In this document: positions 32,459 to 49,462 of the stretch, piece by piece
Numbering within the stretch: the first letter of the stretch is position 1
How the letters are laid out: the number at the start of each line of letters is the position of its first letter
Assembly (NCBI GenBank): GCA_020632555.1
Contig: JACKFI010000002.1
Span: forward strand, 130,621-194,620
Direction: 5' to 3'
Source of the DNA: Candidatus Omnitrophota bacterium
GTDB lineage: Bacteria; Omnitrophota; Gorgyraeia; Zapsychrales; JANLHA01
Length of the DNA stretch: 64,000 nucleotides
The notes under the pieces: generated by a model
The model's database searches: none
What the model was told of the DNA's origin: nothing
The model's input: only the letters and a program-made list of their open reading frames with translations
Position numbers and translations under genes: made by a program

Positions 32459-33022
32459 TCACTCACCATTGGCAAGAATAATATCCGTCGCGGCGGCCAA
32501 ATCTTCCACCGTATAATCCGGCCGGACTTTCCACGTACGCACCATATTGCGATCACTCATTCCCGAAAGCACAAAAATCGTTTGGCAACCAGCTGTCTTG
32601 CCAGCTGTCACATCCACTTCGGTATCACCAACAAAATACGCATGCACCGCATGACTAATGGGTTTTTTCATCAAAGTCAAAGCCGCTCGAATCGAGCCGA
32701 TTCCCGGCTTGCGGCAATCACACCCCTGTTGGGTAGTGTGCGTACAATAATAAACTTTTTTAATTTCCCCGCCATTGCGGAGAACTTCCTTGTTCATCAG
32801 ACGAGTAATCCGATCAAGCTTATTCTGACTATAAATTTTTTTACCAACCCCCGCCTGATTGGAAACCACAAACACCGTATAGCCATGTTCTTTCAAGCGC
32901 CGCAAAGCATCCAACGCGCCGGGTATAAAATGAAATTCCTTAACCTTGGTCACATAATTGCCATGACCGGGAAATTCATTGATCACCCCATCACGATCCA
33001 AAAAAACAATTTTTTTACTCAT
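32459..33022 (-). CDS. gmhB: D-glycero-D-manno-heptose 1,7-bisphosphate phosphatase (HAD-IIIA)
   Basis: It carries 'FLDRDGVIN', the zinc motif 'CTHTTQQGCDCRKP' and 'VGDTEVD'. The ATG is at 33022. Confidence 0.8.
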   Translation of the reverse strand: MSKKIVFLDRDGVINEFPGHGNYVTKVKEFHFIPGALDALRRLKEHGYTVFVVSNQAGVGKKIYSQNKLDRITRLMNKEVLRNGGEIKKVYYCTHTTQQGCDCRKPGIGSIRAALTLMKKPISHAVHAYFVGDTEVDVTAGKTAGCQTIFVLSGMSDRNMVRTWKVRPDYTVEDLAAATDIILANGE

Positions 33023-33153
33023 CAAATCACCCGAATTGTTTTAAAAACGCGTTTGCGAGCCATCAGTATACTGGACACTATCCGCCCTAATCAACACGAA
33101 AGGCAGAAATTTTCATTTCTGCCTTTTGCAAAAAACCCAACAATTTAAATCGG

Positions 33154-34272
33154 CTACACGCCAACTTTTGAACTGACAATCATTTTCAAACTATCACAAA
33201 CATACTGCACTTGCTCTTTAGTGATATGAGGAAACATCGGCAAGGATAAAATTTCCGACGCCACTTGCTCAGAAACCGGAAAATCCCCCGTCTTATGACC
33301 CAATTCTTGATAAGCCTGCTGCAAATGCAGAGGAATTGGATAATGAATCAAAACACCAATCCTTTTTTCTTTGAGCGCATCTACTACGTGATCACGATTC
33401 TTGGTCCGTATCGCATAGGTTTGATAAACATGCGTCCGATCTGATTTCAAAACCGGCGTAACAATATCCGCAACAGCGGCTAACTCTTGACGATAAACAT
33501 CAGCCATACCCGCACGCATCTGATTCCATTGATCCAGGCGTTTTAATTTTGCCGACAGAATAACCGCCTGCACTGTATCCAAGCGTGAATTATACCCTTT
33601 AATTTTATGCTCATACCGGCCTTCACGGCCATAATCACGCAACATCAAAGAATTTTTATATATGGTTTCATCACTGGTCACAATCATCCCTCCGTCGCCA
33701 AAAGCACCCAAAGCCTTGGTCGGATAAAAACTAAAACACGCCACATCGCCCAAAGACCCCACCCGCCGGCCTTGATAGCGAGCGCCGTGAGCCTGCGCGG
33801 CATCTTCAATCACTTTCAACTTATGTTCTTTGGCAATGGCACAAATTTCCTGCATATTCGCCGCTTGACCATAAATATGAACCGGAATAATCGCCTTGGT
33901 TTTGGAAGTAATCGCTTGCTTTAACTTTTTAGGGTCTAAATTATACGTATCGGGTTCAATATCAACAAAAACCGGCTTGGCGCCACCGTAAGAAATGCAC
34001 AAAGCCGTCGCGATAAACGTGTACGGCGGCAAAATTACTTCATCCCCTTCCTTAATATCCAGCGCCGCCAAAGCCAAATACAAAGCATCTGTTCCCGAAT
34101 TTACCCCGACCGCGTATTTCGCATCACAATACTTAGCAAAACTGGCCTCAAAATCTTTTTCTTCCTGACCCAAAATAAAATTACCGGCTTCAAAAACTTT
34201 ATTCAAGCCCGGTTCAATTTCATCTTTAATGATCTGATATTGTTCACTAAAATCTACAAATGGAACGTCCAT
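33154..34272 (-). CDS. DegT/DnrJ/EryC1/StrS-family PLP aminotransferase (nucleotide-sugar)
   Basis: 372 aa. It carries 'AVGVNSGTDALYLAL', 'EDAAQAHGA' and 'SFYPTKALGAFGDGG' (PLP lysine). Confidence 0.85.
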   Translation of the reverse strand: MDVPFVDFSEQYQIIKDEIEPGLNKVFEAGNFILGQEEKDFEASFAKYCDAKYAVGVNSGTDALYLALAALDIKEGDEVILPPYTFIATALCISYGGAKPVFVDIEPDTYNLDPKKLKQAITSKTKAIIPVHIYGQAANMQEICAIAKEHKLKVIEDAAQAHGARYQGRRVGSLGDVACFSFYPTKALGAFGDGGMIVTSDETIYKNSLMLRDYGREGRYEHKIKGYNSRLDTVQAVILSAKLKRLDQWNQMRAGMADVYRQELAAVADIVTPVLKSDRTHVYQTYAIRTKNRDHVVDALKEKRIGVLIHYPIPLHLQQAYQELGHKTGDFPVSEQVASEILSLPMFPHITKEQVQYVCDSLKMIVSSKVGV

Positions 34273-34297
34273 GAATAAAACCTTTCGTAATAATGTT

Positions 34298-35374
34298 TTA
34301 TGTTAATGAATTCTGAACCGCATTAAAAACGTCGCCAACTTCAACATTCTTGACACAACTGATATGTTCACACGCCGCCCGACGAAAATTTCGATAACAC
34401 GGTCGGCAAGCTATCGAACTTGTGACAACACGATGTTGTCCGGGCACACCCGCATAAGGGCCATAAACCTTTTCATCAACCGGGCCGAAAACAGAAACTG
34501 TTTTGATACCTGCCGCCACCGCCATATGCAAAGGCCCGCCGTCATTGACCAATGCCAAAAAACTTTTCTTGAGAATCGCCAGCGTCTGCAATAAACTCGT
34601 TTTTCCACAAGCGTTAAACAGCGGGCATTTTACTAAACTTTGAATCTCTTTGCAAAGAGATTCCTCTGCGTGATTGCCCAGCAAAATGATATTCACATTA
34701 AAATCAGCCATTATTTTTGTAATCAGCTGCGCATATTTTTCAGCCGGCCAACGTTTAAATTTCGCGTCCGGCCCCCAGCTTTCACCGCCCCCCGGGAAAA
34801 CAGCAATCCATCGGGCTTGCAAAGAATTAGCATCCTGCAAAAATTTCTCCGCCCATAAACAACCCTCCGGGGCAACAGCAATATCCATCGATTGCGGACT
34901 AATATGAAAATTCACGGCGCTCAAAAGCCCCTGATAATATTGCGCCACATGCCGACCTTCATAACCAGAAAGCAAAACCTTTTTTGTTAAGAAAATACTG
35001 CGATTTTTATAATTAAGACCAACCCGTTGTTTAATTCCGGCCAGCCAACAATAAAATCCGGCATACCATGTCATCGAAAGATCAAAAACCGCGTCATATT
35101 GTCCTTGCTGAATCTGGTTCTTAGTTCTTTTGATTAACTGCAAAAACTCAAACCGGGAACGGTCAGAAACAACTTTAAACTCACTGCGGTCATAAACAAT
35201 CACCTGATTAATCTGCGGCAAACTCTCCAAAAGCGGCGCAGTGCGTCGATTGGAAATATACCCAATATAGGCATCAGGAACATTGGCTTTGATGTTCTTC
35301 ATCAACGGAACTGTAAATAAAACATCGCCTATACCAAAAGTATTAATAATCAAAAACCGTTGAGCTCTGCGCAT
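34298..35374 (-). CDS. glycosyltransferase family 9 (heptosyltransferase-like)
   Basis: 358 aa. It carries 'RFLIINTFGIGDVLFTVPL' and 'VNDGGPLHMAVAAG'. Confidence 0.8.
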   Translation of the reverse strand: MRRAQRFLIINTFGIGDVLFTVPLMKNIKANVPDAYIGYISNRRTAPLLESLPQINQVIVYDRSEFKVVSDRSRFEFLQLIKRTKNQIQQGQYDAVFDLSMTWYAGFYCWLAGIKQRVGLNYKNRSIFLTKKVLLSGYEGRHVAQYYQGLLSAVNFHISPQSMDIAVAPEGCLWAEKFLQDANSLQARWIAVFPGGGESWGPDAKFKRWPAEKYAQLITKIMADFNVNIILLGNHAEESLCKEIQSLVKCPLFNACGKTSLLQTLAILKKSFLALVNDGGPLHMAVAAGIKTVSVFGPVDEKVYGPYAGVPGQHRVVTSSIACRPCYRNFRRAACEHISCVKNVEVGDVFNAVQNSLT

Positions 35375-35406
35375 TACAATTTCCCATGGATCTTATGTTA
35401 ATAAAC

Positions 35407-36252
35407 TTAATGAATCCGCAGCTTTTCACGCCGCGAAGTTTTAAAACGCGGGCGCAAATACGTGCAAGGATTAAACATATTCCTTCGCTTGATATCTTGC
35501 CAATCCTGCTGACTGATAGCATGCCGCGCAATCTTCTCCTGCATCACCAATGGATGTGACCCAAAATAAACCGGGAAACGATTCAAATCCCCAAACGAAT
35601 ATTCTTGCGTCTTTTCTGATTCTGTGAGCGTCGTAATCCCCATCATCTCTGCGTTAACGCGACGCTGGGTCATCACATCCTGCGGTTGGACCCAACCATA
35701 ATGATACAAAAAACAGCCTGTATGCTGGCGCCGCATAGGTCGGTCATCGCAGCGTTTAAAACCGTACGCGTCGCCCATCGACTCAACAGACCCATTATTG
35801 CGAATAATCCGATCCTGCTTCTGATACCAGCCGCGGTCAATGCGGTAACGATAATAACTGCCATAAAAATGCAGCCACGCAAAACGCAAAGCGTCAACGT
35901 CTTGATGCAAATATTTTTCCATACACCGTCGAAGTTTTGGCAAATCCGTTTGATGAATCACTTCATCCGATTGCAAATAAAAAGCCCAGTCGCCTCGGCA
36001 TTCTTGCAAAGCCATATTCGTTTGCCGTGATAGCTCAATATTGCCTTCTGAAAAATCCCAATCTGTTTGAAAAATGCGAATCTTAGGACTTCTTAAAGAT
36101 TCAATCAAAGCCAGCGTGCCATCCTGAGATTTTCCAACATTAACAATAAACTCATCGCATATCGGCAGAAGGGATTGAATTGACTCTAAAGCTGGGTAGT
36201 TAAATTGAATGGCATTGCGGACAATTGTAAATCCACTGATTTTCATCGTCAT
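35407..36252 (-). CDS. glycosyltransferase family 2
   Basis: 281 aa. The N-terminal 'ISGFTIVRNAIQFNYPALESIQS' and 'YLQSDEV' (DxD-like) fit a GT-A fold. Confidence 0.65.
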   Translation of the reverse strand: MTMKISGFTIVRNAIQFNYPALESIQSLLPICDEFIVNVGKSQDGTLALIESLRSPKIRIFQTDWDFSEGNIELSRQTNMALQECRGDWAFYLQSDEVIHQTDLPKLRRCMEKYLHQDVDALRFAWLHFYGSYYRYRIDRGWYQKQDRIIRNNGSVESMGDAYGFKRCDDRPMRRQHTGCFLYHYGWVQPQDVMTQRRVNAEMMGITTLTESEKTQEYSFGDLNRFPVYFGSHPLVMQEKIARHAISQQDWQDIKRRNMFNPCTYLRPRFKTSRREKLRIH

Positions 36253-36264
36253 AGCCAGCCGCCT

Positions 36265-37371
36265 TTAAGCAAACTCCTGATAAACAGCCAAGGTTTCCTG
36301 CGCGGTCTTATCAAAAGAAAAACTCACAGCACGATTCAAAGCTTTCGCTTGCAACTGGCTTTTGAAATCCGCGTCTTCCAAAAGACGCAATACCGCACCC
36401 GCGATTTCATCAGGGTTATAAGGATTAACCACCAACGCTCCATCAGCGGCAATCTCCGGGCAAGAAGAAACATCAGAAGTCACCACCGCTGCCCCGCACG
36501 AAAAAGCTTCCACAATCGGAAAGCCAAACCCTTCATAAAAAGACGGGAACACAAAGACATCACACAAATTGTACAAAGCCCGAAGCTGTTCATCCGAAAC
36601 ATAGCCGGGAAAAATCACATCATCTGTCAAATCAAATTTCTTAATCACATCCGCCAAACCCTCAACCATCCACCCTTTCATTCCGCTGACCACCAATTTG
36701 CTTTTAAATGCCTTATTTTTCTTTAAAATGGACAAAGCGAGCAATAAATTCTGCAAATTCTTGCGCGGCTCAATGGTCCCAACAAAAAGCAAGAACGATT
36801 GCGGGATTCCTCGTCGTGTTAAATCTGCCCGTGCCTGCGCTCGCGCCAAATCTTTGAGCGGATAAAAAACATTTTTATCCACCCCCTGATAAACCAAACG
36901 CATTTGTTCTGGCTTAACTGGAAAATATTGCTGCAAATCATGTATCGTGCTTTGCGAACAACAAATAATACGGTCGGCCCGCTCGACAATTTGGGTCAGC
37001 TGTTTCTGCGCTGTTTCGCAAGTTTGTGCGGTATGCCCGGCGGGATAGGTTTTATAAACCAAATCGTGCACTGTCACAACAATTTTAGCTTTTTCAAAAG
37101 TCAATGTTTCAATCGTTGGCGTATGGTACAAATCCACCGGACCTAAAATCTTGTTTAAACCTTGTCCGAACCAATCAACTTTGACGTGAAAATTCTCAGC
37201 CTGCACGCGGGGAATGGTGCGCTTAAAATCAAAATATTTTTTTTGCGCGTAAAGCCAATATTCATTTTTTTGATCAATTTCACTCAATGATTTAACAAGA
37301 TTATACGCATAGCGACCAATCCCTGTATAATTTTTGAGAAGAAACGAACGGCAATTGATCGCAATCCGCAT
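36265..37371 (-). CDS. glycosyltransferase family 4 (GT-B, GT1 clan)
   Basis: The ATG at 37371 (MRIAINCRSF) lies 5 nt after the upstream stop; the track's TTG at 37425 is rejected. It carries the 'FVFPSFYEGFGFPIVEA' EX7E motif. Confidence 0.85.
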   Translation of the reverse strand: MRIAINCRSFLLKNYTGIGRYAYNLVKSLSEIDQKNEYWLYAQKKYFDFKRTIPRVQAENFHVKVDWFGQGLNKILGPVDLYHTPTIETLTFEKAKIVVTVHDLVYKTYPAGHTAQTCETAQKQLTQIVERADRIICCSQSTIHDLQQYFPVKPEQMRLVYQGVDKNVFYPLKDLARAQARADLTRRGIPQSFLLFVGTIEPRKNLQNLLLALSILKKNKAFKSKLVVSGMKGWMVEGLADVIKKFDLTDDVIFPGYVSDEQLRALYNLCDVFVFPSFYEGFGFPIVEAFSCGAAVVTSDVSSCPEIAADGALVVNPYNPDEIAGAVLRLLEDADFKSQLQAKALNRAVSFSFDKTAQETLAVYQEFA

Positions 37372-37375
37372 GACG

Positions 37376-38551
37376 TTAAACTCTCTTGCCGTGAAGGCTA
37401 AGAAATTTCTCAACGGTTTGCACAATATAATCTAATTGCGTTAAATCAATGTCTTGATGAATGCCAAAATGAAAACCATGGTCACCGCAATATTCAGCTT
37501 GCGGAAAATCACCCAGCTGATACCCTAAGAAAGCATAACTTTCACATTGCGTCGGAATGGAATTAAAAAGGTTACGGGAATCCACCCCGGCCTGATCAAG
37601 ATACTGCACCAATTCATCTTTGGTGAAATTAAGACCTTCCCGTAAAATCACAGAATACGCATGCGGTCCAATCTTTTCGCCGGTGTCTTCCTTGATCGTT
37701 ATAAAATAAGCTTCAAATTTCTTAAACTGTTCGATCAAATGCAATAAATTCCGGCGGCGACGGCCAAGAATATCTTGATAAATTTTAATATTCCCTAAAC
37801 CAACCGCCGCCTCCAACTCATTCATCTTGGCCGAAAAACCAATCCGTTTAAAATCAAATTTATTAACCATGCCATGATTGCGCAATGACCGTAAAGCTTC
37901 AGCCATCGCCGCATCATTGGTGGTTACAATTCCCCCTTCAATGGTCGTAATAATATGCGCCGCGTAAAGACTATACGCTGTCATATGGCCAAACGTCCCC
38001 ACCAGCTGACCATGAAGCTCGGCGCCATGCGCTTCGGCCGCATCTTCAATAACATATAACTTATGTTTTCTCGCCAAATCCATAATCGGCCCCATGGCCG
38101 CGGGTTTGCCCATCAAATGCACCGGCATAATGGCGCGAGTGCGCGATGTGATCACTGCTTCAATCTTATTCGGATCAATGTTTAACGTTTCCCGATTCAC
38201 GTCAACAAAAACAGGTTTAAATCCCGCCTGAAAAACCGCATTGGCTGTCGCCACAAAAGTCAAAGCCGGAATAATCACTTCATCCCCGCGCTGAGCGCCA
38301 TAATCATAAAGCACCGCGCACGCCAAAGCATCCGCGTCTGTGCCGCTGGACACCGCCACAGCTTCTTGTGCACCAAACAAATGCGCGAATTGTTTTTCAA
38401 ACTCCGCGACATATTTGCCGCGCGTCACAAACTTAGAATCCAGCGCCATATCAATCAATCGACGAGCTTCCTCTGTAATCGAAACAGTTCCAAAAGGAAC
38501 ACGATATCGTGCCTTGACTTCCACGCTTTGATTCTTAATTTTTGTGTCCAC
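37376..38551 (-). CDS. DegT/DnrJ/EryC1/StrS-family PLP enzyme (aminotransferase or 3-dehydrase-like)
   Basis: It carries 'AVSSGTDADALA', 'EDAAEAHGA' and 'SLYAAHIITTIEGG'. The start is uncertain: the track's TTG is at 38608, and I prefer the GTG at 38551, which has an upstream GAAAGG. Confidence 0.8.
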   Translation of the reverse strand: MDTKIKNQSVEVKARYRVPFGTVSITEEARRLIDMALDSKFVTRGKYVAEFEKQFAHLFGAQEAVAVSSGTDADALACAVLYDYGAQRGDEVIIPALTFVATANAVFQAGFKPVFVDVNRETLNIDPNKIEAVITSRTRAIMPVHLMGKPAAMGPIMDLARKHKLYVIEDAAEAHGAELHGQLVGTFGHMTAYSLYAAHIITTIEGGIVTTNDAAMAEALRSLRNHGMVNKFDFKRIGFSAKMNELEAAVGLGNIKIYQDILGRRRRNLLHLIEQFKKFEAYFITIKEDTGEKIGPHAYSVILREGLNFTKDELVQYLDQAGVDSRNLFNSIPTQCESYAFLGYQLGDFPQAEYCGDHGFHFGIHQDIDLTQLDYIVQTVEKFLSLHGKRV

Positions 38552-39269
38552 GATCTTTGACCTTTCGTATTGTTTCCTGCGCGCTCGAATAACGCTCTGG
38601 CGTGCCAATATCTAAAAACTCTTGATCAACAACAAAACTCCTAAACCGCTCGCCCAACTTCACCGGCAAAACAGGGAAAAAATCAAGTTCAATCGAAAAC
38701 TTGCCTGCCGGCATTAACTCTAATACTTCTTTGTTAAAGCAATACGCACCAATATTAACAAACCCTCCGCCCGCGACATCTTTCTTTTCTTCAAAGCCAA
38801 CAATCACATCATGAGCTCCCAAAAGAACTGTGCCATAATCCCGGCACTCAGCAATTTTCGCAACCGAGAGGGTCACCGCGCTTTTTTGGGCTAAATGAAA
38901 TTTCAAGAATTCCTGATAATTCAAAGAACAAAAACAATCCCCATTCATGGCAAAAAACTGATCTGACTCAATTAAGGATTGCGCATTCTTAATCGCGCCG
39001 CCCGTCCCCAAAGGAAGCTCTTCTCTTGAGAACTCAATGATTAGCCCCATATCATGCGCGCGATAATACTGCTCGACTTGTTGAGCTTGATAACCAACGG
39101 CTAAAATAATCCGACGAAATCCTTGCTCCTGCAAATGCCTTAACACTTTGTTCAAAAAAGGTTCTTCTCCAACAGCAGCCATGATTTTTTGTGACTGGCC
39201 AATGGTCGAGCGCAATCTGGTCCCCAAGCCGCCGCAAAGAATCACCATATCTGTTTTTGATAAATTCAT
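38535..39269 (-). CDS. sugar-1-phosphate nucleotidyltransferase (HddC-like heptose-1-P guanylyltransferase candidate)
   Basis: 244 aa with 'MVILCGGLGTRLRS' (the GxGxRL signature). It is adjacent to an HddA-like kinase. Confidence 0.75.
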   Translation of the reverse strand: MNLSKTDMVILCGGLGTRLRSTIGQSQKIMAAVGEEPFLNKVLRHLQEQGFRRIILAVGYQAQQVEQYYRAHDMGLIIEFSREELPLGTGGAIKNAQSLIESDQFFAMNGDCFCSLNYQEFLKFHLAQKSAVTLSVAKIAECRDYGTVLLGAHDVIVGFEEKKDVAGGGFVNIGAYCFNKEVLELMPAGKFSIELDFFPVLPVKLGERFRSFVVDQEFLDIGTPERYSSAQETIRKVKDRGHKN

Positions 39270-39298
39270 AAAACCCTCGTCAACATATTGCTATTTAA

Positions 39299-41814: not shown

Positions 41815-42733
41815 ATTGATTCCTTTTGATCACTTGATACGCTTTAACCAATTCCGCTATTCCCGCCGCCAAAGACACATCCGGTTTAAAACCTGTTTTT
41901 TCAATTTTATCATTACTGACAATATAATCCCGCTTGTCAGGGTCCTCGCCAATAGTCGCTTCCACAAAATAAAAATCTTTGACCTGTTTTTGTATTTCCT
42001 GGCATAACCCCAACTTGCTGATATTCGCATCACTCAAGCCCACGTTATAGGCTTGATTTTTCATTTTCTCAAACTGATTTAAACTGTGACTAAACGCTTT
42101 GGCCACATCGCGCACATGAATAAAATTTCGGTTAAAATGCGCTTCAAACAAAATCACAAACCGATCATACACCGCGCGATAAACAAAGTCATTGACCAAT
42201 AAATCCAAACGCATGCGCGGCGAAACACCAAAAGCCGTCGCTAAGCGCAGCGTAATCCCATTGCCCGCCGCGAGAATGGCGTCTTCGGCTTCCACTTTCA
42301 ACTTGCCATATAGAGAGATGGGACGCAGCGGCGTCTCTTCGGTACAATGTTTGCCCTTTTCACCAACGCCATAACCGCTATTAGTCGTCGGAAAGATAAT
42401 CATTTGATTTTTACTGCGCAATTCCAAAATCAATTCAACCGCATCCAAAAGAATCGATTGTGCTCCAATCGGATCTTTGGCACATAAAGGCGCGCCCGTT
42501 AAACAAGCCAAAGGAAAAATCGCATCCACATCTTTAAGCAATTTTGTCATCAAACTTTTATCGCGCGTATCGCCACGAACAATAGTCAAAGTAGGATAAT
42601 AACAGACATCTAAAAGAGACGTCTGGTTGTACATAAAATTGTCTAAAGCAACAATCTCATGACCTTCAGCCAAGAACCGCGGAATCATCACAGACCCCAA
42701 ATATCCAGCCGCACCGGTGATTAAAATCTTCAT
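41801..42733 (-). CDS. NAD-dependent epimerase/dehydratase (extended SDR)
   Basis: 310 aa. It carries 'ILITGAAGYLGS' and 'YGKLK' (YxxxK). Confidence 0.8.
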   Translation of the reverse strand: MKILITGAAGYLGSVMIPRFLAEGHEIVALDNFMYNQTSLLDVCYYPTLTIVRGDTRDKSLMTKLLKDVDAIFPLACLTGAPLCAKDPIGAQSILLDAVELILELRSKNQMIIFPTTNSGYGVGEKGKHCTEETPLRPISLYGKLKVEAEDAILAAGNGITLRLATAFGVSPRMRLDLLVNDFVYRAVYDRFVILFEAHFNRNFIHVRDVAKAFSHSLNQFEKMKNQAYNVGLSDANISKLGLCQEIQKQVKDFYFVEATIGEDPDKRDYIVSNDKIEKTGFKPDVSLAAGIAELVKAYQVIKRNQYANI

Positions 42734-42782
42734 AAAAGAATTTCCTTTCTTAACATGCCTGCTTTAATCAAAATGTTTTTTG

Positions 42783-42890: not shown

Positions 42891-42901
42891 CAAACACATC
42901 C

Positions 42902-43807
42902 CTAAATCATCTGCTGAATACCTTCTTCTAACCCAATCTTTGGCTGCCAACCCAAATTTTTCATACGAGAACTATCCAAAAGTTTTCGCATCGCTCCGTC
43001 TGGTTTGGAAGCATCAAATTCAATTTGGCCTTGATAACCCACCTGTTTAGCAATCATCTTAGCCAAATCTTTAATCGTAATATCTTCGCCAACACCAACA
43101 TTGATCAATTGATCCTCATTGTAATTTTTCATCAAAAATACACAGGCATCGGCAAAATCTTCACTAAACAAAAACTCACGCTTAGGTTTACCGGTTCCCC
43201 AAAGGGTTACCTTTTTCTGGTTATCCTCCTGAGCTTGAAAAAATTTCCCCAACAATGCACCCAAAACATGCGCATTTTGGCTGTCGGTATCCGCTTGTGG
43301 TCCGTATAATGTTGCAGGAACCATCGCAATCGCGTTAAATCCATATTGCCGTCGATACGCCCGGCACATTTCAATACCAGCAATCTTGGCTACCGCATAC
43401 GGTTGGCTGGTCGGCTCTAAGGCTCCCGTCAAAAGATATTCTTCTTTCATCGGCTGAGGACAAGCTTTGGGATAAACACAAGAACTGGCAATAAAAAGCA
43501 GTTTCTTAACTTTGCTTTTATAGGAGGTATGAATGATATTGTTTTGGCTTTGCAAATTCTCGTAAATAAATTCCGCACAATATCTCTGATTAGCCTCGAT
43601 GCCGCCAGAACACGTTGACGCTAAGAAAACATACTCAGGTTCAATCTCGCCAAAAAACTTTTCAACTTGCTGCTGATTAAAAACATCCCATTTCTCTGGC
43701 CCGGCAGAAATCACATTCTTAAAACCACTTTCAACTAGATGGTCATACAACGAATGTTCGACGATATCATTATGTCCGACGATAAGAATGCGCGATTGTT
43801 TCTTCAT
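42902..43807 (-). CDS. GDP-L-fucose synthase-like 3,5-epimerase/4-reductase (Fcl family) with an atypical dinucleotide-binding loop
   Basis: 301 aa, collinear with E. coli Fcl as I recall it ('SSCVYPK', 'PYAVAKIAG', 'MVPATLYGP', 'FDASKPDG'). The N-terminal GxxGxxG loop instead reads 'GHNDIVE'. Confidence 0.7.
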   Translation of the reverse strand: MKKQSRILIVGHNDIVEHSLYDHLVESGFKNVISAGPEKWDVFNQQQVEKFFGEIEPEYVFLASTCSGGIEANQRYCAEFIYENLQSQNNIIHTSYKSKVKKLLFIASSCVYPKACPQPMKEEYLLTGALEPTSQPYAVAKIAGIEMCRAYRRQYGFNAIAMVPATLYGPQADTDSQNAHVLGALLGKFFQAQEDNQKKVTLWGTGKPKREFLFSEDFADACVFLMKNYNEDQLINVGVGEDITIKDLAKMIAKQVGYQGQIEFDASKPDGAMRKLLDSSRMKNLGWQPKIGLEEGIQQMI

Positions 43808-43899
43808 AAAACTATTCGACTCTCCCCAAAATATCTCTTAAGCACACCCAACACCTTAAAAACTTTTCTCTCTTTTTAAAAAGGGATTCAGGGAAGCTC

Positions 43900-44451
43900 C
43901 TATTTCAGATTATAATAATTCCCGTGCTCAATGAGCATCGTCGAGCGGCCATCAGGCCGCTCAAAAGCATGTTTATACGCAGGGAAGATTTCTTCTGGTT
44001 CATTGAGTTCAATCACATCAATGGTGGTAAATAAATTACGAAAAGCATTGGCGTAATTGCCAACATGCTGATGTCCCGGGTGAACCGGCGCATCAGGTCC
44101 AGCGGCCACGCGAATCAACATCTTGGGCATCACCTGTCCGCCGCTAATGGCTGGGATTTTGTCCAACATATTGGTCATGTCAGATGTCGCCAATAATAAA
44201 AAATTCTGACGCGGATAGACGGAAATAGGAACATAACCCGCCAAAGCCATGCCAATTGAAAACTGCATTTGAAAACTTTCATTAATCGGCATTTCCAATG
44301 CGCGCTCCGGCGGACAATCCCGCAATGTTTGAAACATAAATGTCCCCGGCCCGGCCACAGTTTGTCCCACAAACATCGCTTGCGGCTGAGTCGCCAGCCA
44401 TTCCATCGTGCGCTTTAATTCGTCGAAATATTTCACCTTATCATTCTCCAA
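43900..44451 (-). CDS. ThDP-enzyme pyrimidine-binding subunit (E1-beta-like, truncated to the Pyr domain)
   Basis: 183 aa. 'MFVGQTVAGPGTFMFQTLRD...ALEMPINESFQMQFSIGMALAG' parallels the N-terminal domain of E1-beta or transketolase. The start is the TTG at 44451 or the GTG at 44436 (GGAG upstream). Confidence 0.6.
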   Translation of the reverse strand: MENDKVKYFDELKRTMEWLATQPQAMFVGQTVAGPGTFMFQTLRDCPPERALEMPINESFQMQFSIGMALAGYVPISVYPRQNFLLLATSDMTNMLDKIPAISGGQVMPKMLIRVAAGPDAPVHPGHQHVGNYANAFRNLFTTIDVIELNEPEEIFPAYKHAFERPDGRSTMLIEHGNYYNLK

Positions 44452-44466
44452 TTAAAGAATTCATAT

Positions 44467-44796
44467 TTAAAAAACCTTATTAATCCACTTTCTTAACTGC
44501 GGCAAACGGTTTTTGATAACCATCCAAACGATGACAACATCAACACCCATATAGTCATGGATCAAAACATCCCGCATCCCAGCAATTTTCTGCCATTCAA
44601 TATTGGGATACTGATTTTTAAATTCTTTATCTATCTTCTTCGCGGCTTCGCCAATAACTTCCAAGTTGCGAATGACCGCATCCTGCACCATCTTATTCTT
44701 CAAAAATTCCGACTCTTTTAAACCACGAGTGTAACTTTCAATATCCTTAATCGCATCCGCAATATGATGCAAATAAACCTTATTATCGTGACTCAT
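44467..44796 (-). CDS. hepT: HepT-like (DUF86) RNase toxin of a type VII TA pair
   Basis: 109 aa with 'RDVLIHDY', the Rx4HxY active-site motif. Its ATG overlaps the MntA stop (ATGA). Confidence 0.85.
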   Translation of the reverse strand: MSHDNKVYLHHIADAIKDIESYTRGLKESEFLKNKMVQDAVIRNLEVIGEAAKKIDKEFKNQYPNIEWQKIAGMRDVLIHDYMGVDVVIVWMVIKNRLPQLRKWINKVF

Positions 44797-45086
44797 AAAT
44801 AAACGGCCTCACGCAAAACCTGCGCACGAATATATCGGCTTAAAGATCGCGGCGTTGCGACATCAACCTTTTTCTTCAATAACTTCTCTAAATCCTGCTT
44901 GAGGCCGACCTGATCAAAAAGATCAGCATTTTCTTCAAACTCGACCAAAAAATCCAAATCGCTGCCGCGTGAAAACCGGCCCGTTGCATAGGAACCAAAA
45001 AGTGCTATTCTTTTAACTTTGTTTAATTTAAGGGCACTTTTAAATTTTACTCCGCTAAAAACCACGTCTAAACGCTTTAGAATCAT
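44793..45086 (-). CDS. mntA: MntA-like minimal nucleotidyltransferase antitoxin
   Basis: The ATG at 45086 has a perfect AAGGAG Shine-Dalgarno; the track's TTG at 45101 is rejected. 'ALFGSYATGRFSRGSDLDFLVEF' matches the GSx9-10...DxD nucleotidyltransferase motif. Confidence 0.85.
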   Translation of the reverse strand: MILKRLDVVFSGVKFKSALKLNKVKRIALFGSYATGRFSRGSDLDFLVEFEENADLFDQVGLKQDLEKLLKKKVDVATPRSLSRYIRAQVLREAVYL

Positions 45087-45097
45087 ATAGTTCTCCT

Positions 45098-45718
45098 TCA
45101 AAACTTAATCAATTTACCCAAACCTGAATGGGGATAACCATTCACATACTGAAAATAAATAATCTTGGATTCGTATTTGGTTGCTTTAAACCACGGATCT
45201 TCGCTGCCCCACACATCCCGCGTCTTGGTCATAACGCTCAAACCATTGTCGCAAACAATAAACTTAACCGGCAAATCAAAATTATACGCATATTTTACCG
45301 CTTCGAAAAAAATCCCTGTTTCCGACGACATTTCTCCACAAAACAAAAATGCTCGCCCGGACTTGCCTTGATTCTTCAGCGCCCAAGCAACACCCGTTGC
45401 GGTGCCCATCAAACTGCCAACGATGCCGGAACAAAGAACTTTGTACTTAGGAAAACACAAAGAAATACTTTTGCCATCCAAAATCGCTTGTTTCACTTCT
45501 TCGCGCGGCACACCTTTTAAAAGCGCCAACTCATGCGCATCCCAAAAACCAAAAATATAATCATCATCGCCAATATTTTCTTCACGGAAAATTTTAATCA
45601 ACTGATCCTCGCGCCCCGCACGCAAATGCACCGGAGCCCGAATCGCGCCGGTCGCAAAAACATCCGCAATCTCTTGTTCAAACGTCACCAAATCTTCTTT
45701 AGTCAACTGTGTTTTCAT
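45098..45718 (-). CDS. ThDP-binding subunit (E1-alpha-like, truncated)
   Basis: 206 aa. It carries 'APVHLRAGREDQL', 'GIVGSLMGTATGVAWALK', and the ThDP motif 'CGEMSSETGIFFEAVKYAYNFDLPVKFIVCDNG' (GDG...NN type). Confidence 0.65.
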   Translation of the reverse strand: MKTQLTKEDLVTFEQEIADVFATGAIRAPVHLRAGREDQLIKIFREENIGDDDYIFGFWDAHELALLKGVPREEVKQAILDGKSISLCFPKYKVLCSGIVGSLMGTATGVAWALKNQGKSGRAFLFCGEMSSETGIFFEAVKYAYNFDLPVKFIVCDNGLSVMTKTRDVWGSEDPWFKATKYESKIIYFQYVNGYPHSGLGKLIKF

Positions 45719-45829
45719 AAGACTCTAAACCCTTCACAAAGTAATAATTAATAATCCCCCCGCCAACGAAAGAAATACGTGCCATTATGAAATAATCTCG
45801 AATTATTCGCAACCCCAATTCAATATTTA

Positions 45830-46780
45830 TTACTTCTCGTCGCAACAATTCGCTTTAAACCAAGCCAAGGTTTCTTGCAATCCTTGTTGAAGACTAACCT
45901 TTGGCTGCCATTGCAAATGTTTCTTTGCCAAAGTGATATCCGGACACCGTTGTTTGGGATCATCCACCGGCAAATCACGATAAACCAATTTGCTGTGTGC
46001 CCCTGAAAATTTCAAAACCATGTTCGCAAATTCCAAAATGGTGAATTCTTTGGGATTACCGATATTCACCGGTTGATGCAAATTTGAATACAATAAACGC
46101 ACAATCCCATCAATCAAATCTGAATAATAACAAAAAGACCGTGTTTGTTGGCCATCGCCATAAATCGTCAGCGGCTGATTATGCAAAGCTTGATCAATAA
46201 AATTAGGAACAACGCGGCCGTCATTGACTTGCATGCGCGGCCCGTAGGTGTTGAAAATGCGCACAATCGCCGTATTAACGTCATACGAACGATGATAAGC
46301 CATGGTGAGCGCTTCAGCAAAACGCTTGGCTTCATCATAAACACTGCGCGGCCCAATAGAGTTGACATGCCCCCAATAGGATTCTTTTTGCGGATGTTCC
46401 AGCGGATCACCATAAATTTCAGAAGTCGATGCAACCAAAAAACGCGCTTTTTTCAATTGAGCCAATTTTAAACAATGTTCTGTTCCCTGTGATCCAACCT
46501 TCAAAGTCGCTAAAGGGTGTCGCAAATAATCCACTGGACTGGCCGGTGAAGCAAAATGCAAAACATAATCCACCTTCCCCGTTATGGTCCAAGGCCGGCA
46601 CACGTCTTTTTTGATAAACTCAAAGTTTTTATTTTTTCGCAAATGCGCGATATTGCGCAAACTCCCCGTTATCAAATTATCGGCCGCAATCACCCGGCAA
46701 CCATCAGCCAATAAACGATCGCACAAATGACTGCCTAAAAATCCCGCGCCACCGGTAACAACAGCTATTTTCTTTTTCAT
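45830..46780 (-). CDS. UDP-glucuronate decarboxylase (UXS/ArnA-C-terminal-like SDR)
   Basis: 316 aa. It carries '[16 protein letters not shown]', 'STSEIYG', 'YDEAKR' and '[10 protein letters not shown]'. Confidence 0.8.
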
Positions 46781-46801
46781 TTCAACGATCCTTAATCAAA
46801 T

Positions 46802-48103
46802 TTACAACTTTACAATTTTTTTATGATTCAAAGCCCCGTACACATTACGGGTATCAAAAATCATTTTCGCCGACTTTAGAATCAATTGATAATTGACCTG
46901 ACTATGATCGGTGGCAATCACCACACAATCAAACTCGGCCACATTTTTTCCTGTCAAATCAGTCGCCGCCAGATCAATGGCGCCGATTTTCAAATACGGA
47001 ATAATCGGATCATAATATTCAACCTTAGTTCCCTTACCTTGCAATAATTCAATCAAGCGCAAAGGCGGAGATTTACGCAAATCTTTAACATCTTTTTTAT
47101 ACGTCACGCCAATAATTAAAATTTTTGCGTTCTCAAGAACCTTATTATGCGATTTAAGAATAGCTTGAATGCGCCCAACCGCATAAGCCGGCATCGACGA
47201 ATTGGTATCCGCGGACAAGCGAATGTATTTCGAATTAAAACCATACTTGCGCGCTTTCCAATGCAAATACAAAGGGTCATCGGGAATACAATGACCGCCT
47301 ACCCCCAGCCCCGGATAAAAAGGCATGAAGCCAAATGGCTTTGTTTTGGCTGCCTCAATCACTTCCCAAATATCAATATTCAATTTATGGCACATCATGG
47401 CCAATTCATTGATCCATCCGATATTGACAATTCGAAATGAATTCTCCAGAAGCTTGGTCATTTCCGCGGCATCTGCGGAAGAAACCAAATGTACTTCTTT
47501 GATAATCGTTTGATAAAACAACTGGCTCAACTGCCCGCTTTTCTGATCAATCCCGCCGACAATTTTAGGAATACGGGTCACATCATATTTTTTGTTGCCC
47601 GGATCAATGCGTTCCGGCGAAAAAGACAAATACAATTCTTTGCCAACCATCATGCCCGATTTTTCTAAAACTGGCTTGACCAATTCCCGCGTTGTTCCCG
47701 GATACGTCGTGCTTTCCAGAATAACCAAGGTGTCTTTTTTAATATATTGATCAATCAATTTAACAGCATTAACAATAAAAGAAACATCCGGCGTGTATTT
47801 GCGACGCAACGGAGTAGGAACACAAATCATAATCACATCCGCAAATTTAAGCAAAGAAAAATCTGTTGACGCCATCAAGCGGCCGTTATTGACCACCGTT
47901 GTCAAATCTTTGGCTGTGATATCGGCAATATAATTTTTTTTAGTCTGCACGCGCTGGACACGATCCACATCCATATCCAACCCATAAACTTTAAAACCAA
48001 CCTTGGCAAAACTCACCGCCAAAGGCAGTCCTACATAACCAAGACCCAAGACTGCGACAATGGCTTTTTTATTGTGAATTTTATTTTTTAAAATTTTTGA
48101 CAT
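46802..48103 (-). CDS. nucleotide-sugar 6-dehydrogenase (UDP-N-acetyl-hexosamine dehydrogenase type, WecC/TviB-like)
   Basis: The ATG at 48103 is preferred; the track's TTG at 48136 is rejected. It carries 'VLGLGYVGLPLA' and 'GLGVGGHCIPDDP' (catalytic Cys). Confidence 0.8.
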   Translation of the reverse strand: MSKILKNKIHNKKAIVAVLGLGYVGLPLAVSFAKVGFKVYGLDMDVDRVQRVQTKKNYIADITAKDLTTVVNNGRLMASTDFSLLKFADVIMICVPTPLRRKYTPDVSFIVNAVKLIDQYIKKDTLVILESTTYPGTTRELVKPVLEKSGMMVGKELYLSFSPERIDPGNKKYDVTRIPKIVGGIDQKSGQLSQLFYQTIIKEVHLVSSADAAEMTKLLENSFRIVNIGWINELAMMCHKLNIDIWEVIEAAKTKPFGFMPFYPGLGVGGHCIPDDPLYLHWKARKYGFNSKYIRLSADTNSSMPAYAVGRIQAILKSHNKVLENAKILIIGVTYKKDVKDLRKSPPLRLIELLQGKGTKVEYYDPIIPYLKIGAIDLAATDLTGKNVAEFDCVVIATDHSQVNYQLILKSAKMIFDTRNVYGALNHKKIVKL

Positions 48104-48142
48104 CGATAAACCTTTAAGCTCTATTTTGTAAATCAACTCACC

Positions 48143-49462
48143 TTAAACAACTCCGCGGCCGATTCCAAAATATTCAAATCCTAAATCATCCAAATGATCA
48201 TTCTTATATAAATTTCGTCCATCAAAAATCATCGGTTGGCGCATCACATTTTTTAAACGTTTAAAATCAACCTGCCGAAATTCATCCCACTCGGTCAAAA
48301 CAACCAGACAATCTGAATCTTTGGCAACGGCATAAACATTCTGACAAAATGTCATCCCCTTAAATATTTTCTTCGCTTGATCCATCGCTTGCGGATCATA
48401 CGCCTTAATCTTGGCCCCTTCGGCTTGCAAACGTGTAATAATATCAACTGACGGAGCATTGCGCATATCATCGGTATTGGGCTTAAAAGCCAGCCCCAAA
48501 ACGCCAATCTTTTTTCCCTTGATGATCCACAACTTGTCTTCAATCAAACGAACAAACGCCGCTTTTTGTTCTTCATTGGTCAAACGAACCGCTTTTAAAA
48601 GATTAAAATCGTAACCACTTTTTTCACTCAAACGAATAAACGCGTCCACATCTTTAGGAAAACAACTGCCGCCAAACCCAATGCCCGCATTTAAAAAACT
48701 CGGGCCAATCCTTTTGTCATAGCCCATGCCCTCAGTCACTTTGAGAATATCAGCTCCAACTTTATCGCAAATCTGTGACAAAGCATTGGCAAAAGAAATC
48801 TTGGTTGCTAAAAATGAATTCGACGCATGCTTGATGATTTCAGCTGACGTGATGTTGGTCACAACAATGCGCGTCTTAAGCGGCTTATAAATTTCCTTGA
48901 GTAATTCTTCCGCCTTCTTGGACTCCACGCCAATCACCACCCGGTCAGGATTCATAAAATCCGCAATGGCCGAACCTTCGCGCAAAAATTCTGGATTCGA
49001 CGCGACATCAAAAGGAACATTGTGCCCGCGTTCTTTAAACTTTTTAGGTAAATTCACCTTAATGGTATTTTCAATCCGCCGGCCGGTTGCCGCCGGTACC
49101 GTAGATTTCTCGACAATCAATTTATAGGAATCCATACTCAAAGCAATTTGCCGCGCGACATTTTCCACATAGGTCAAATCCGCGTCGCCATTTTTTTTGG
49201 ATGGAGTTCCAACCGCGATAAAAATCACCAAAGACTTTTTAGAAGCCTCTTTAATCGTTTCACAAAAAAAGAGTTTTTTCTTTTTGATTTGCTTGGTCAT
49301 CAATTCTTGCAAACCCGGCTCATAAATCGTCGCAATCCCTTTGCGCAATGTCTTTAATTTTTCACGATCATTATCCACACAATACACCGTGTGTCCAATA
49401 GCTGAAAGACAAACCCCCGTGACTAAACCAACATATCCGGTTCCCACAATACCAATATTCAT
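48143..49462 (-). CDS. ugd: UDP-glucose 6-dehydrogenase
   Basis: 439 aa. It carries 'IVGTGYVGLVTG', 'NPEFLREGSA' and 'GFGGSCFPKD'. Confidence 0.85.
   Translation of the reverse strand: MNIGIVGTGYVGLVTGVCLSAIGHTVYCVDNDREKLKTLRKGIATIYEPGLQELMTKQIKKKKLFFCETIKEASKKSLVIFIAVGTPSKKNGDADLTYVENVARQIALSMDSYKLIVEKSTVPAATGRRIENTIKVNLPKKFKERGHNVPFDVASNPEFLREGSAIADFMNPDRVVIGVESKKAEELLKEIYKPLKTRIVVTNITSAEIIKHASNSFLATKISFANALSQICDKVGADILKVTEGMGYDKRIGPSFLNAGIGFGGSCFPKDVDAFIRLSEKSGYDFNLLKAVRLTNEEQKAAFVRLIEDKLWIIKGKKIGVLGLAFKPNTDDMRNAPSVDIITRLQAEGAKIKAYDPQAMDQAKKIFKGMTFCQNVYAVAKDSDCLVVLTEWDEFRQVDFKRLKNVMRQPMIFDGRNLYKNDHLDDLGFEYFGIGRGVV

Follow-up and report, generated by a model that had tools for sequence, protein, structure and literature searches.

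This report concerns a cluster of sugar-nucleotide genes in a 64,000 nt stretch of DNA from a Candidatus Omnitrophota bacterium (contig JACKFI010000002.1, positions 130,621 to 194,620; hereafter the window), and in particular two short genes within it whose products are related to the alpha and beta subunits of thiamine diphosphate (ThDP)-dependent E1 enzymes. We refer to these proteins as mini-E1 alpha and mini-E1 beta. On balance, we favour an interpretation in which the cluster serves a cell-surface glycan, probably one associated with lipopolysaccharide (LPS), and converts GDP-heptose to a 3-deoxy, C-branched sugar by means of the mini-E1 enzyme. A pathway of C4 oxidation and C3 deoxygenation acting on GDP-heptose is predicted with considerable confidence from the enzyme sequences. 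That mini-E1 adds a carbon branch at the 3-deoxy-4-keto stage is a more evenly poised proposal, which draws on fold, motifs, gene context and precedent.

Mini-E1 alpha (45098-45718, minus strand) is 206 aa in length and matches the Pfam model E1_dh with 43 bits, against a cut-off of 22. Its sequence matches in the PDB are to pyruvate dehydrogenase (PDH) E1 alpha subunits only, and are confined to the ThDP-binding region. The ThDP/Mg motif of the window protein reads G128-E129-M130 ... D157-N158, the counterpart of the GDG...NN motif of E1. Across the family the motif takes the form G-[D/E]-M...D-N. G128, M130 and N158 never vary in it, and at position 129 at least 90 % of members have D whilst the window protein has E. 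His31, His62 and a Y-P-H-x-G motif at the C-terminus of alpha are invariant as well and, with His119 and His124 of beta, are candidates to take the place of the E1 loops that are missing here. The AF2 model of the protein, a confident one (pLDDT 93), found E1 alpha subunits as its best Foldseek matches, with TM-scores of 0.79 and 0.46 relative to query and target, respectively.

Mini-E1 beta is encoded on the same strand by a 183-aa open reading frame (ORF) at 43900-44451. Its homologues are almost all 178 aa in length and span 97 % of the ORF, so the true start probably lies about five codons inside it, at approximately 44436. The protein consists of a Pyr domain only and carries the motif P-I-N-E-S. 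Whilst the match to Pfam Transket_pyr was weak, PDB sequence matches were to the N-terminal halves of E1 beta subunits, and included the cofactor-activating Glu (P-I-N-E). Glu53, His119, His124, Arg76 and Arg109 are at least 95 % conserved amongst 81 orthologues. The AF2 model, of moderate confidence (pLDDT 76), again gave E1 beta subunits as the best Foldseek matches, with TM-scores of 0.76-0.78 relative to the query and ~0.44 relative to the target.

For the pair overall, the TM-score relative to the target reached only 0.42-0.47, so the full-length E1 architecture known from other systems (alpha of ~320-370 aa, beta of ~325-345 aa with a C-terminal domain) is not present in these proteins of 206 and 178-183 aa. 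Judged from sequence and predicted structure, mini-E1 is a bare PP-domain alpha subunit plus a bare Pyr-domain beta subunit, approximately 40 % below the known sugar-branching pairs of E1 type in size; the C-terminal region of alpha and the entire C-terminal domain of beta are missing from the models. In canonical E1 enzymes these two regions carry the lipoyl- and E2-interacting elements. The loss of the parts that contact an E2 or lipoyl partner fits a free-standing carboligase that does not feed an E2. The idea that the two short subunits form a distinct minimal family, put forward in an earlier sequence-only reading of this DNA, is upheld: the proteins are E1-type, far shorter than Pau11 (325 aa) and Pau12 (345 aa; PMC4425429), and belong to a large family of their own. 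That reading had given the beta subunit 183 aa, rather than the probable 178, and had overlooked two genes that lie between alpha and beta; its figure of 206 aa for alpha stands.

The profile and structure-prediction searches that it had proposed for the pair returned E1 alpha and E1 beta, not ComDE or phosphonopyruvate decarboxylase. Identity with the latter enzymes was rejected accordingly, as both sequence and fold match E1, and AzcBC appeared only at E ~1e-4. In the Foldseek ranking, DXP synthase, split transketolase and AzcBC lay far behind E1. Membership of the YerE family was also rejected. YerE-like proteins have a single-chain TPP_enzyme_N/M/C architecture, and no TPP_enzyme_N or TPP_enzyme_M match was found for the mini-E1 pair amongst Pfam and NCBIfam models, the best being E1_dh and Transket_pyr; the pathway logic is YerE-like, the enzyme is not. 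No curated family model fits the pair, and source annotations of its members read 'hypothetical', 'thiamine pyrophosphate-dependent enzyme' or 'PDH E1 alpha'.

The mini-E1 alpha family is extensive, comprising 3063 proteins at E<=1e-3 in a database clustered at 90 %, and 278 clusters at E<1e-10 in a library clustered at 50 % identity, nearly all of them ~195-220 aa in length. Some members also match DXP_synthase_N. Alpha-beta fusions of ~400 aa exist naturally (P0160, P0226, P0232 and a 402-aa protein of cyanophage S-SM2, discussed below), which is evidence that the subunits associate. In P0161 and P0150 an intein or LAGLIDADG element interrupts the alpha homologue, and P0218 carries a fused APH-type phosphotransferase domain. 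A plasmid collection yielded only canonical full-size E1 alpha matches, at 30-35 % identity, and no cassette.

To describe the genomic setting of mini-E1, loci were collected by scanning with sequence patterns. Two broad alignments, A1 (46 sequences) and A2 (12 sequences), contained no stretch that was conserved enough; a tighter subgroup alignment, A3, did. With one genome scanned per species, at least 526 species genomes carry a close relative of mini-E1 alpha. Carriers were found in Verrucomicrobiota, Nitrospira (nitrite oxidizers), Burkholderiales (including the cultured Herbaspirillum lusitanum and Massilia), Cyanobacteria, Planctomycetes, Terriglobia and Omnitrophota. The window proteins were then searched against the ORFs of 87 loci, and partners were counted in the 43 non-redundant loci that offered 8 kb or more of sequence to either side. 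E1 beta was present in all 43 loci, the second DegT-family protein of the window (DegT#2) and the GHMP kinase in 42 each, a 310-aa short-chain dehydrogenase/reductase (SDR) in 39, and both the NTP-transferase and the B12-binding radical S-adenosylmethionine (SAM) enzyme in 36. The Fcl-like SDR, found in 24/43 loci, is an accessory member, and a GmhA-like SIS protein (13/43) and a GmhB-like protein (8/43) were less frequent. The remaining genes of the cluster rarely accompany mini-E1: UDP-xylose synthase (UXS)-like proteins were seen in 9/43 loci, family 9 glycosyltransferases (GT9) in 6/43, and Ugd, LptD, DegT#1, GT2 and GT4 in no more than three each, with DegT#1 in a single locus.

DegT#2 generally stands side by side with the two E1 genes. 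In Massilia sp. LXY-6 the gene order of the locus is kinase, Fcl-like SDR, E1 alpha, E1 beta, DegT, NTP-transferase, GmhA-like SIS, SDR, GmhB and GT4, and in a locus from a peat metagenome it is SDR, NTP-transferase, kinase, E1 alpha, E1 beta, DegT, B12-radical SAM and SDR. GT9 genes flank the cassette in Nitrospira too. We conclude that the cluster has two parts. Module 1 (the kinase, the NTP-transferase, DegT#2, the 310-aa SDR, mini-E1, the B12-radical SAM enzyme and often the Fcl-like SDR) is an evolutionarily mobile and strongly conserved cassette, whilst module 2 (Ugd, UXS, a second nucleoside diphosphate (NDP)-sugar dehydrogenase, DegT#1 and the glycosyltransferases) is specific to Omnitrophota. 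The candidate pathway outlined when only the sequence was read would thus involve the conserved core and not the second module. The neighbourhood survey called for at that time also showed that the core recurs across phyla and that the whole arrangement, from ROK-LptD-Ugd through the glycosyltransferase genes, is syntenic in other Omnitrophota, which argues against chance juxtaposition.

A divergent member of the family was found on a marine TARA scaffold (L006, 10001-13689), where genes for a short-chain dehydrogenase and for a full-size transketolase split into N and C halves come after the mini-E1 pair, with RmlC-like, SDR, DegT and Wzy genes nearby; no heptose genes are present at this locus. 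The mini-E1 family is therefore not restricted to heptose pathways.

The enzymes of module 1 point to a heptose substrate. Amongst them, the HddA-like GHMP kinase (39299-40297, minus strand, as are all genes of the cluster) has the heptose kinases 3K85, 4USK and 4N3O as its top PDB matches (E 4e-35 to 4e-31), and scores 132 bits against the NCBIfam HddA model (cut-off 600). For the HddC-like sugar-1-phosphate guanylyltransferase (38535-39269), HddC was the top NCBIfam model at 153 bits (cut-off 300), with mannose-1-phosphate guanylyltransferase nearly equal at 150 bits. The GmhB-like HAD-IIIA phosphatase (32459-33025) scores 157 with NCBIfam GmhB (NF006506; cut-off 178), and its orthologue in the Massilia cassette scores 187, above the cut-off; the best NCBIfam matches of the Massilia SIS protein are all GmhA.

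The 310-aa extended SDR (41801-42733) is, by sequence, a Cj1427-like C4-dehydrogenase. It aligns with PDB entries 6VO6/6VO8, which we take to be Cj1427 of Campylobacter jejuni, over residues 2-309 (308 residues) with ~60 % identity and an E-value of 4.9e-111, and is 57 % identical to the SDR of the Massilia cassette. Cj1427 oxidizes GDP-heptose at C4 with alpha-ketoglutarate as the needed oxidant, and together with the C3-dehydratase of serotype HS:5 the C. jejuni enzyme yields GDP-D-glycero-4-keto-3-deoxy-heptose in vitro (PMC10680097). A 4,6-dehydratase route had been cited as background in the earlier reading; the genes indicate a Cj1427-type C4-dehydrogenase in its place.

DegT#2 (37376-38608, with a true start that is probably downstream of the ORF start) would provide the next step. 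Amongst solved structures it is closest to GDP-perosamine synthase 3BN1 (220 bits), in which FSFFGNKIITT aligns with YSLYAAHIITT of the window protein, placing His218 opposite the catalytic, Schiff-base-forming Lys; the K-to-A mutant entry 3DR4 concerns the same position. A His occupies this position in 79/79 DegT#2 orthologues, mostly within the sequence FSFYYAHHMST. Replacement of Lys by His is the hallmark of the 3-dehydratases ColD and E1, which depend on pyridoxamine 5'-phosphate (PMP). Both of these dehydrases are also strong matches of DegT#2, and the top NCBIfam model of the Massilia orthologue is RfbH. We therefore predict that DegT#2 is a ColD-like, PMP-dependent NDP-4-keto-sugar 3-dehydratase, and that the heptose is probably 3-deoxygenated and not aminated. 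The earlier description of two DegT enzymes that use pyridoxal 5'-phosphate (PLP) consequently applies to DegT#1 only, which retains the Lys of an aminotransferase, and the amino modification that had been suggested for the heptose is less likely than 3-deoxygenation.

The Fcl-like GDP-sugar SDR (301 aa, 42902-43807) has GDP-fucose synthases as its best PDB matches, scores 393 with the NCBIfam GDP-L-fucose synthase model (cut-off 500), and is 43 % identical to the Massilia protein SDR334. Its N-terminus in the window reads GHNDIVE, compared with GHxGLIGSA in orthologues. In Omnitrophota the protein lacks the GxxGxxG glycines (GHNDIVE, or GHDDIID in L001, 11062-12108), whilst members from other phyla all keep AGHxGLIGSA; the gene is absent in L003, and the Omnitrophota version may be decaying or repurposed. 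Taken together, four enzymes of the cassette are nearest to characterized GDP-sugar enzymes, which points to a GDP-linked substrate.

The last conserved member of module 1 is the B12-binding radical SAM enzyme (506 aa, 40294-41814), which matches PF02310 with 47 bits (cut-off 32) and PF04055 with 63 bits (cut-off 29.5), and has a CxxxCxxC motif that begins at C229. The top NCBIfam models were HpnJ (139, cut-off 578), BchE (109) and AprD4 (92), all far under cut-off, and no equivalog model of a characterized methyltransferase subfamily in NCBIfam was reached; PDB matches were AprD4 and TokK. Methylation is the commonest outcome in this enzyme class, and we offer a role as a C-methyltransferase as a rather doubtful suggestion. 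A scheme in which C7 methylation by this enzyme would combine with C2 branching to give erwiniose- or caryophyllose-type sugars was considered and dropped; those sugars are made by YerE-like enzymes, which use long hydroxy-keto-acid donors on CDP-3,6-dideoxy-4-keto-glucose (PMC9306805).

Homology supports the roles assigned to the enzymes for heptose activation, C4 oxidation and C3 dehydration, as it does the E1 fold and the ThDP motifs of mini-E1. The proposal that a modified heptose is made for a surface glycan gains support from the heptose-kinase relatives, from the identity of the 310-aa SDR to 6VO6/6VO8, and from orthologous Burkholderiales cassettes that also contain GmhA-like and GmhB genes.

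Mini-E1 is also carried by viruses. At least 568 IMG/VR contigs contain a relative of mini-E1 alpha. In 83 viral loci that we inspected, E1 beta accompanied alpha in 72, Cj1427-like SDRs (~320 bits) were present in 34, and Fcl-like SDRs occurred as the SDR334 type in 45 and the FclLike type in 15; DegT#2-like, radical SAM, SIS and kinase genes were seen in fewer. The alpha and beta genes are interleaved with the Cj1427-like and Fcl-like SDR genes. The virus-like contig L088 is giant-virus-like, with DNA polymerase B, Rad51, ERCC4 and a eukaryotic-type topoisomerase IB, and L089 and L090 are phage-like. On all three, more divergent mini-E1 pairs lie amongst glycosyltransferase, SDR, DegT or radical SAM genes.

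Two isolated cyanophages, S-SM2 and P-TIM68, carry a mini-E1 gene. In S-SM2 it is the fusion SSM2_198 (L171, 149421-150629), which is annotated as a 'transketolase central region-containing protein' and is neighboured by two phosphoheptose isomerase genes, a carbohydrate kinase, nucleotidyltransferases and epimerases. The position of the fusion beside phosphoheptose isomerase genes provides independent support for a connection with heptose. Sullivan et al. (PMC3037559) left open what certain 'LPS gene clusters' do, and the gene lies in one of these.

These observations can be arranged into a putative pathway. GmhA, which may be encoded elsewhere in the genome, would isomerize sedoheptulose 7-phosphate, and the HddA-like kinase, GmhB-like phosphatase and HddC-like guanylyltransferase, all encoded in the cluster, would then give GDP-heptose. 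Oxidation at C4 by the Cj1427-like SDR would produce a 4-keto sugar, from which the ColD-like DegT#2 would generate GDP-3-deoxy-4-keto-heptose. The ColD-type reaction converts glutamate to alpha-ketoglutarate, the oxidant that Cj1427 needs, and it is possible that the two steps are coupled in this way. With pyruvate as the donor, mini-E1 alpha/beta would release CO2 and attach the remaining two-carbon unit (acetyl) at C4, leaving a branched sugar with a tertiary alcohol. This order of events is proposed because the cassette encodes the enzymes for a 3-deoxy-4-keto acceptor and the E1 alpha and beta genes adjoin that of the 3-dehydratase; a 3-deoxy-4-keto NDP-sugar is the canonical acceptor of YerE-like enzymes (PMC9306805).

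The Fcl-like SDR, where present and intact, would probably reduce or epimerize the product as an optional step, followed by tailoring by the B12-radical SAM enzyme, for which C-methylation seems likeliest and a radical rearrangement is the alternative; these later conversions are the least secure part of the scheme. A glycosyltransferase would finally move the product onto a glycan. Module 2 would supply UDP-glucuronic acid (UDP-GlcA), UDP-xylose, a second uronic acid and an amino sugar, together with GT2, GT4, GT9 and GT28 enzymes for assembly. The presence of lptD and of GT9, GT4, GT2 and GT28 genes in the cluster provides the surface-glycan context.

All genes named in the sequence-only reading were recovered by ORF calling and Pfam/NCBIfam scans, which also provided the gene identities in the window, and all are closely packed on the minus strand. 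They form an unbroken co-oriented run from 31.3 to 52.5 kb of the window, with gene spacing of -74 to +168 bp. In the direction of transcription, the order is ROK kinase, LptD, Ugd, second NDP-sugar dehydrogenase, UXS, mini-E1 alpha, MntA-like antitoxin, HepT, mini-E1 beta, Fcl-like SDR, 310-aa SDR, B12-radical SAM enzyme, GHMP kinase, NTP-transferase, DegT#2, GT4, GT2, GT9, DegT#1, GmhB-like HAD protein, GT28 and PriA.

The LptD-like outer-membrane LPS assembly protein (49487-51595; Pfam LptD 46 bits) is encoded directly upstream of Ugd, the UDP-glucose 6-dehydrogenase (48143-49462; NCBIfam TuaD 549 bits, NDP-sugar dehydrogenase subfamily 469 against a cut-off of 190). The second NDP-sugar dehydrogenase (46802-48136) scores 429 with the same subfamily cut-off of 190 and resembles UDP-ManNAc/GlcNAc dehydrogenases, its top specific NCBIfam model being UDP-ManNAc dehydrogenase (291 against a cut-off of 750). 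The UXS gene (45830-46780) encodes a UDP-glucuronate decarboxylase that matches human UXS1 structures over its full length (E 3e-102), so that a protein previously described as UXS-like can be taken as a true UDP-xylose synthase.

At the far end of the run are GT4 (36265-37425; Pfam Glycos_transf_1 127 bits), GT2 (35407-36252; Glycos_transf_2 34 bits) and GT9 (34298-35374; Glyco_transf_9 97 bits, heptosyltransferase II 124 against a cut-off of 135). DegT#1 (33154-34272) is a sugar aminotransferase with 432 bits to Pfam DegT and its Lys kept in FSFYPTK; PseC, dTDP-4-amino-sugar transaminase and ArnB-like models of NCBIfam match it, all under cut-off. The UgtP/MurG-like GT28-type glycosyltransferase (diglucosyl-diacylglycerol synthase model 208 bits against 500, with a weak MurG match) does exist as had been claimed, although at 31310-32398 it lies 61 bp outside the start of the region 32459-49462 in which it had been placed.

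Prediction of promoters and terminators across the window gave numbers similar to those in shuffled sequence (47 promoters against 41.8 +/- 7.3, and 29 terminators against 23.8 +/- 4.3), so the scan does not define operon boundaries. A hairpin with a 12-bp stem and a weak T-tail is found at 33099-33126 on the minus strand (AAAGGCAGAAAT-GAAA-ATTTCTGCCTTT), where 128 bp separate DegT#1 from the GmhB-like gene. A transcript could end here, in which case gmhB-GT28-priA may form a separate unit.

The two genes situated between mini-E1 alpha and beta encode a putative type VII toxin-antitoxin pair. The MntA-like nucleotidyltransferase antitoxin (44793-45101; Pfam NTP_transf_2 62 bits) scores 54.1 with NCBIfam MntA (cut-off 60) and has an intact GSx10DxD motif, and the HepT-like RNase toxin (44467-44796; Pfam HepT-like 110 bits) scores 59.3 with NCBIfam HepT (cut-off 60) and has an intact Rx4HxY motif. 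The two genes are adjacent and overlapping, and so show the features, including both motifs, by which HepT/MntA systems are recognized. In other Omnitrophota (L001-L004) the MntA-like gene is absent from this site and alpha and beta are directly adjacent. A 98 %-identical relative (L172, 10633-12125) has an MNT/MntA gene and an antisense IS110 transposase in the same slot, and in L003 (11253-11923) a Phd/PIN pair is placed after beta. The alpha/beta junction, or the site just past beta, is a repeated landing place of mobile modules in Omnitrophota, with alpha and beta always intact.

Over the window as a whole (1-64000), strand bias is extreme: hardly any ORF of 150 aa or more falls on the plus strand, and each 2-kb bin has a negative GC skew. 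Immediately upstream of ROK-LptD are two neighbouring genes for GGDEF diguanylate cyclases (52662-55066), one of which also encodes a GAF domain; this arrangement is kept in related Omnitrophota. A 1501-aa ORF is located on the minus strand at 20562-25067. The PriA homologue (29435-31270) is only 611 aa in length. In most PriA models its match begins at about residue 143, corresponding to profile position ~240-290 of 730-790, whilst one model aligns from residue 25; part of the N-terminal region may be absent.

A number of observations weigh against the GDP-heptose branching interpretation. It should be noted that gene context is the source of the donor, acceptor and product proposed for mini-E1, and that the radical SAM reaction and the final glycan are likewise proposals. 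The identification of 6VO6/6VO8 as Cj1427 is tentative, and the PDB molecule name is generic. No SIS/GmhA homologue was found in the 64-kb window, as the sequence-only reading had stated. The degenerate GxxGxxG motif of the Fcl-like protein in this genome, and the absence of its gene from L003, make the proposed reduction after branching less certain here, and the radical SAM models nearest to the window enzyme, HpnJ, BchE and AprD4, are not methyltransferases. The co-occurrence loci were drawn by sequence patterns of the A3 subgroup, which biases the sample, and the figures describe that subgroup; divergent family members occur in other NDP-sugar settings without heptose genes. Although HddA, HddC and GmhB are the top NCBIfam models of their respective proteins, all three scores in the window fall under the equivalog cut-offs, which would allow a related higher sugar such as an octose.

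The last point bears on an alternative in which mini-E1 acts early, in the manner of transketolase or DXP synthase, and extends a sugar phosphate by two carbons to a higher ketose phosphate, which the GmhA-, HddA-, GmhB- and HddC-like enzymes would activate to GDP-octose or GDP-nonose. In lincomycin biosynthesis, homologous enzyme sets activate an octose. Such a role would also agree with the DXP_synthase_N matches in the family and with the split transketolase beside mini-E1 in the divergent marine locus. We regard it as unlikely, given that ~60 % identity to a heptose-specific C4-dehydrogenase argues for heptose, that alpha and beta are linked most tightly to the 3-dehydratase and the GDP-sugar SDRs and not to the isomerase or kinase, and that the mini-E1 sequence and fold are nearer to E1 than to transketolase or DXP synthase.

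A pentose acceptor is another improbable reading, to which we give about the same weight. Here, mini-E1 of Omnitrophota would branch UDP-4-keto-xylose derived from Ugd and UXS with an acetyl group to give a eurekanate-like sugar, and the heptose genes would serve a separate sugar. The UXS gene directly precedes E1 alpha in the window, an arrangement that fits a pentose acceptor as well; every Omnitrophota locus that was examined has Ugd, UXS and E1 alpha in succession, and the stop codon of UXS overlaps the start of E1 alpha in L003. UDP-4-keto-xylose has been proposed as the substrate of the E1-like pair EvdU5/EvdS3 of everninomicin biosynthesis, a proposal that is itself unvalidated (PMC10338323). 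However, UXS adjoins E1 alpha only in Omnitrophota, and an AsnB-like gene lies between the two in L001. In every other phylum mini-E1 has no Ugd beside it and seldom a UXS-like gene, yet it is nearly always accompanied by the genes for heptose formation, the C4-dehydrogenase and the 3-dehydratase. The window UXS is, moreover, very near to human UXS1, an enzyme that releases UDP-xylose and not the 4-keto intermediate.

That the pair is instead a small 2-oxoacid decarboxylase (ComDE, phosphonopyruvate decarboxylase or AzcBC-like), giving an aldehyde or a phosphonate or sulfonate decoration, seems to us most improbable. Small two-subunit ThDP decarboxylases do exist, and AzcB/AzcC are amongst the weak fold matches of beta (E ~1e-4), but all significant sequence and fold matches are to E1 alpha and beta, and the gene order, PP then Pyr, is that of E1, transketolase and DXP synthase. 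None of the loci examined contained phosphoenolpyruvate (PEP) mutase or sulfonate genes, the constant partners being NDP-sugar enzymes. Nearly as remote is the view that the co-oriented genes are merely unrelated neighbouring operons. It could draw on the gaps of 92-168 bp, the hairpin between DegT#1 and the HAD gene, the failure of the promoter and terminator scan to delimit units, the insertion of mobile elements within the cluster, and the fact that the UDP-sugar module is not kept outside Omnitrophota. Against it, a seven-gene core recurs in several phyla and in viruses with varying gene order, which is the signature of a functional unit, and the arrangement from ROK-LptD to the glycosyltransferases is syntenic across Omnitrophota.

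If GDP-heptose branching by mini-E1 is accepted, the results point to a third and much smaller form of ThDP sugar-branching enzyme, apparently tied to GDP-heptose chemistry and very widespread. With some hesitation we extend this to the suggestion that mini-E1 founds a class of free-standing ThDP carboligases which, with the B12-radical SAM enzyme, may build a nine- or ten-carbon branched sugar from GDP-3-deoxy-4-keto-heptose. The sugar would be a conserved envelope component of entire uncultured phyla (Omnitrophota, and many Nitrospira and Verrucomicrobiota), and cyanophages, other phages and giant-virus-like genomes would have captured the toolkit for remodelling the glycans of host or virion. 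If true, a common and so far undefined bacterial surface sugar would exist, with a bearing on phage receptors and serotypes, and the 'LPS gene clusters' of marine cyanophages, long without an explanation, would in part be accounted for. A minimal carboligase of ~385 residues that makes tertiary alcohols would also be of use in biocatalysis. The pathway lends itself to direct testing: some carriers are in culture, and C. jejuni enzymes that have already been published can produce the presumed substrate.

No description of the cassette or of the mini-E1 family was found in the open-access literature, and its closest counterparts are best considered by type of enzyme. Three kinds of ThDP enzyme are known to branch keto sugars: YerE-like enzymes in LPS biosynthesis, E1-like 'alpha-KADH2' pairs in antibiotic biosynthesis, and transketolases (PMC12247030). 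The alpha-KADH2 enzymes add C2 branches from pyruvate (PMC12247030; PMC4425429). These pairs, amongst them AviB1/AviB2, Pau11/Pau12, EvdU5/EvdS3, those of aldgamycin biosynthesis and KbDH-alpha/beta of kibdelomycin biosynthesis, resemble mini-E1 in having two subunits with E1-type PP and Pyr domains and in being encoded in NDP-keto-sugar clusters, and the known ones are proposed or shown to add acetyl from pyruvate. Their subunits, however, are full size, compared with 206 and ~178 aa for the mini pair, which is without the alpha C-terminal region and the beta C-terminal domain. They belong to actinomycete secondary metabolism, whereas the mini-E1 family is found in surface-glycan clusters of Omnitrophota, Nitrospira, Verrucomicrobiota, Burkholderiales, Cyanobacteria and viruses, and their acceptors are dTDP- or UDP-sugars or glycosides, in contrast to the GDP-heptose derivative presumed for mini-E1.

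The yersiniose pathways (YerE/YerF, and those with ErwE, MMAR_2332 and MygE) share the sequence of 4-keto formation, PMP-dependent 3-deoxygenation, ThDP-dependent branching at C4 and ketoreduction, and likewise provide sugars of surface polysaccharides. YerE, though, is a single-chain member of the decarboxylase/acetolactate synthase superfamily, unlike the E1-type mini-E1, and its pathway passes through CDP-3,6-dideoxy-4-keto-glucose by way of a 4,6-dehydratase and E1/E3. In the cassette described here, GDP-heptose would be processed by Cj1427-type and ColD-type enzymes, and since these stand in place of a 4,6-dehydratase, the 6-hydroxyl group would be retained.

The capsular GDP-heptose pathways of C. 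jejuni have in common with the cassette activation enzymes of the HddA, HddC, GmhA and GmhB kind, the ~60 % identical Cj1427 homologue, a PLP/PMP-dependent 3-dehydratase and Fcl-like GDP-sugar reductases, which in C. jejuni are of the Cj1428 type; they differ in using cupin C3/C5 epimerases, which this cassette does not have, and in having neither a ThDP enzyme nor a B12-radical SAM enzyme. As for the latter, the class B radical SAM proteins GenK, Fom3, TokK and HpnJ, and their relative AprD4, share with the window enzyme an N-terminal B12-binding domain, a CxxxCxxC core and a place in a sugar pathway, but the window enzyme reaches no equivalog and has low identity to any characterized member. 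The chemistry that we propose, branching of a deoxy-keto sugar by an E1-related ThDP enzyme, is therefore already known in kind. What appears to be new is that two single-domain subunits would carry it out, that the substrate would be a GDP-heptose, that a B12-radical SAM enzyme is coupled to it, and that the system is spread over uncultured phyla, nitrifiers and viruses.

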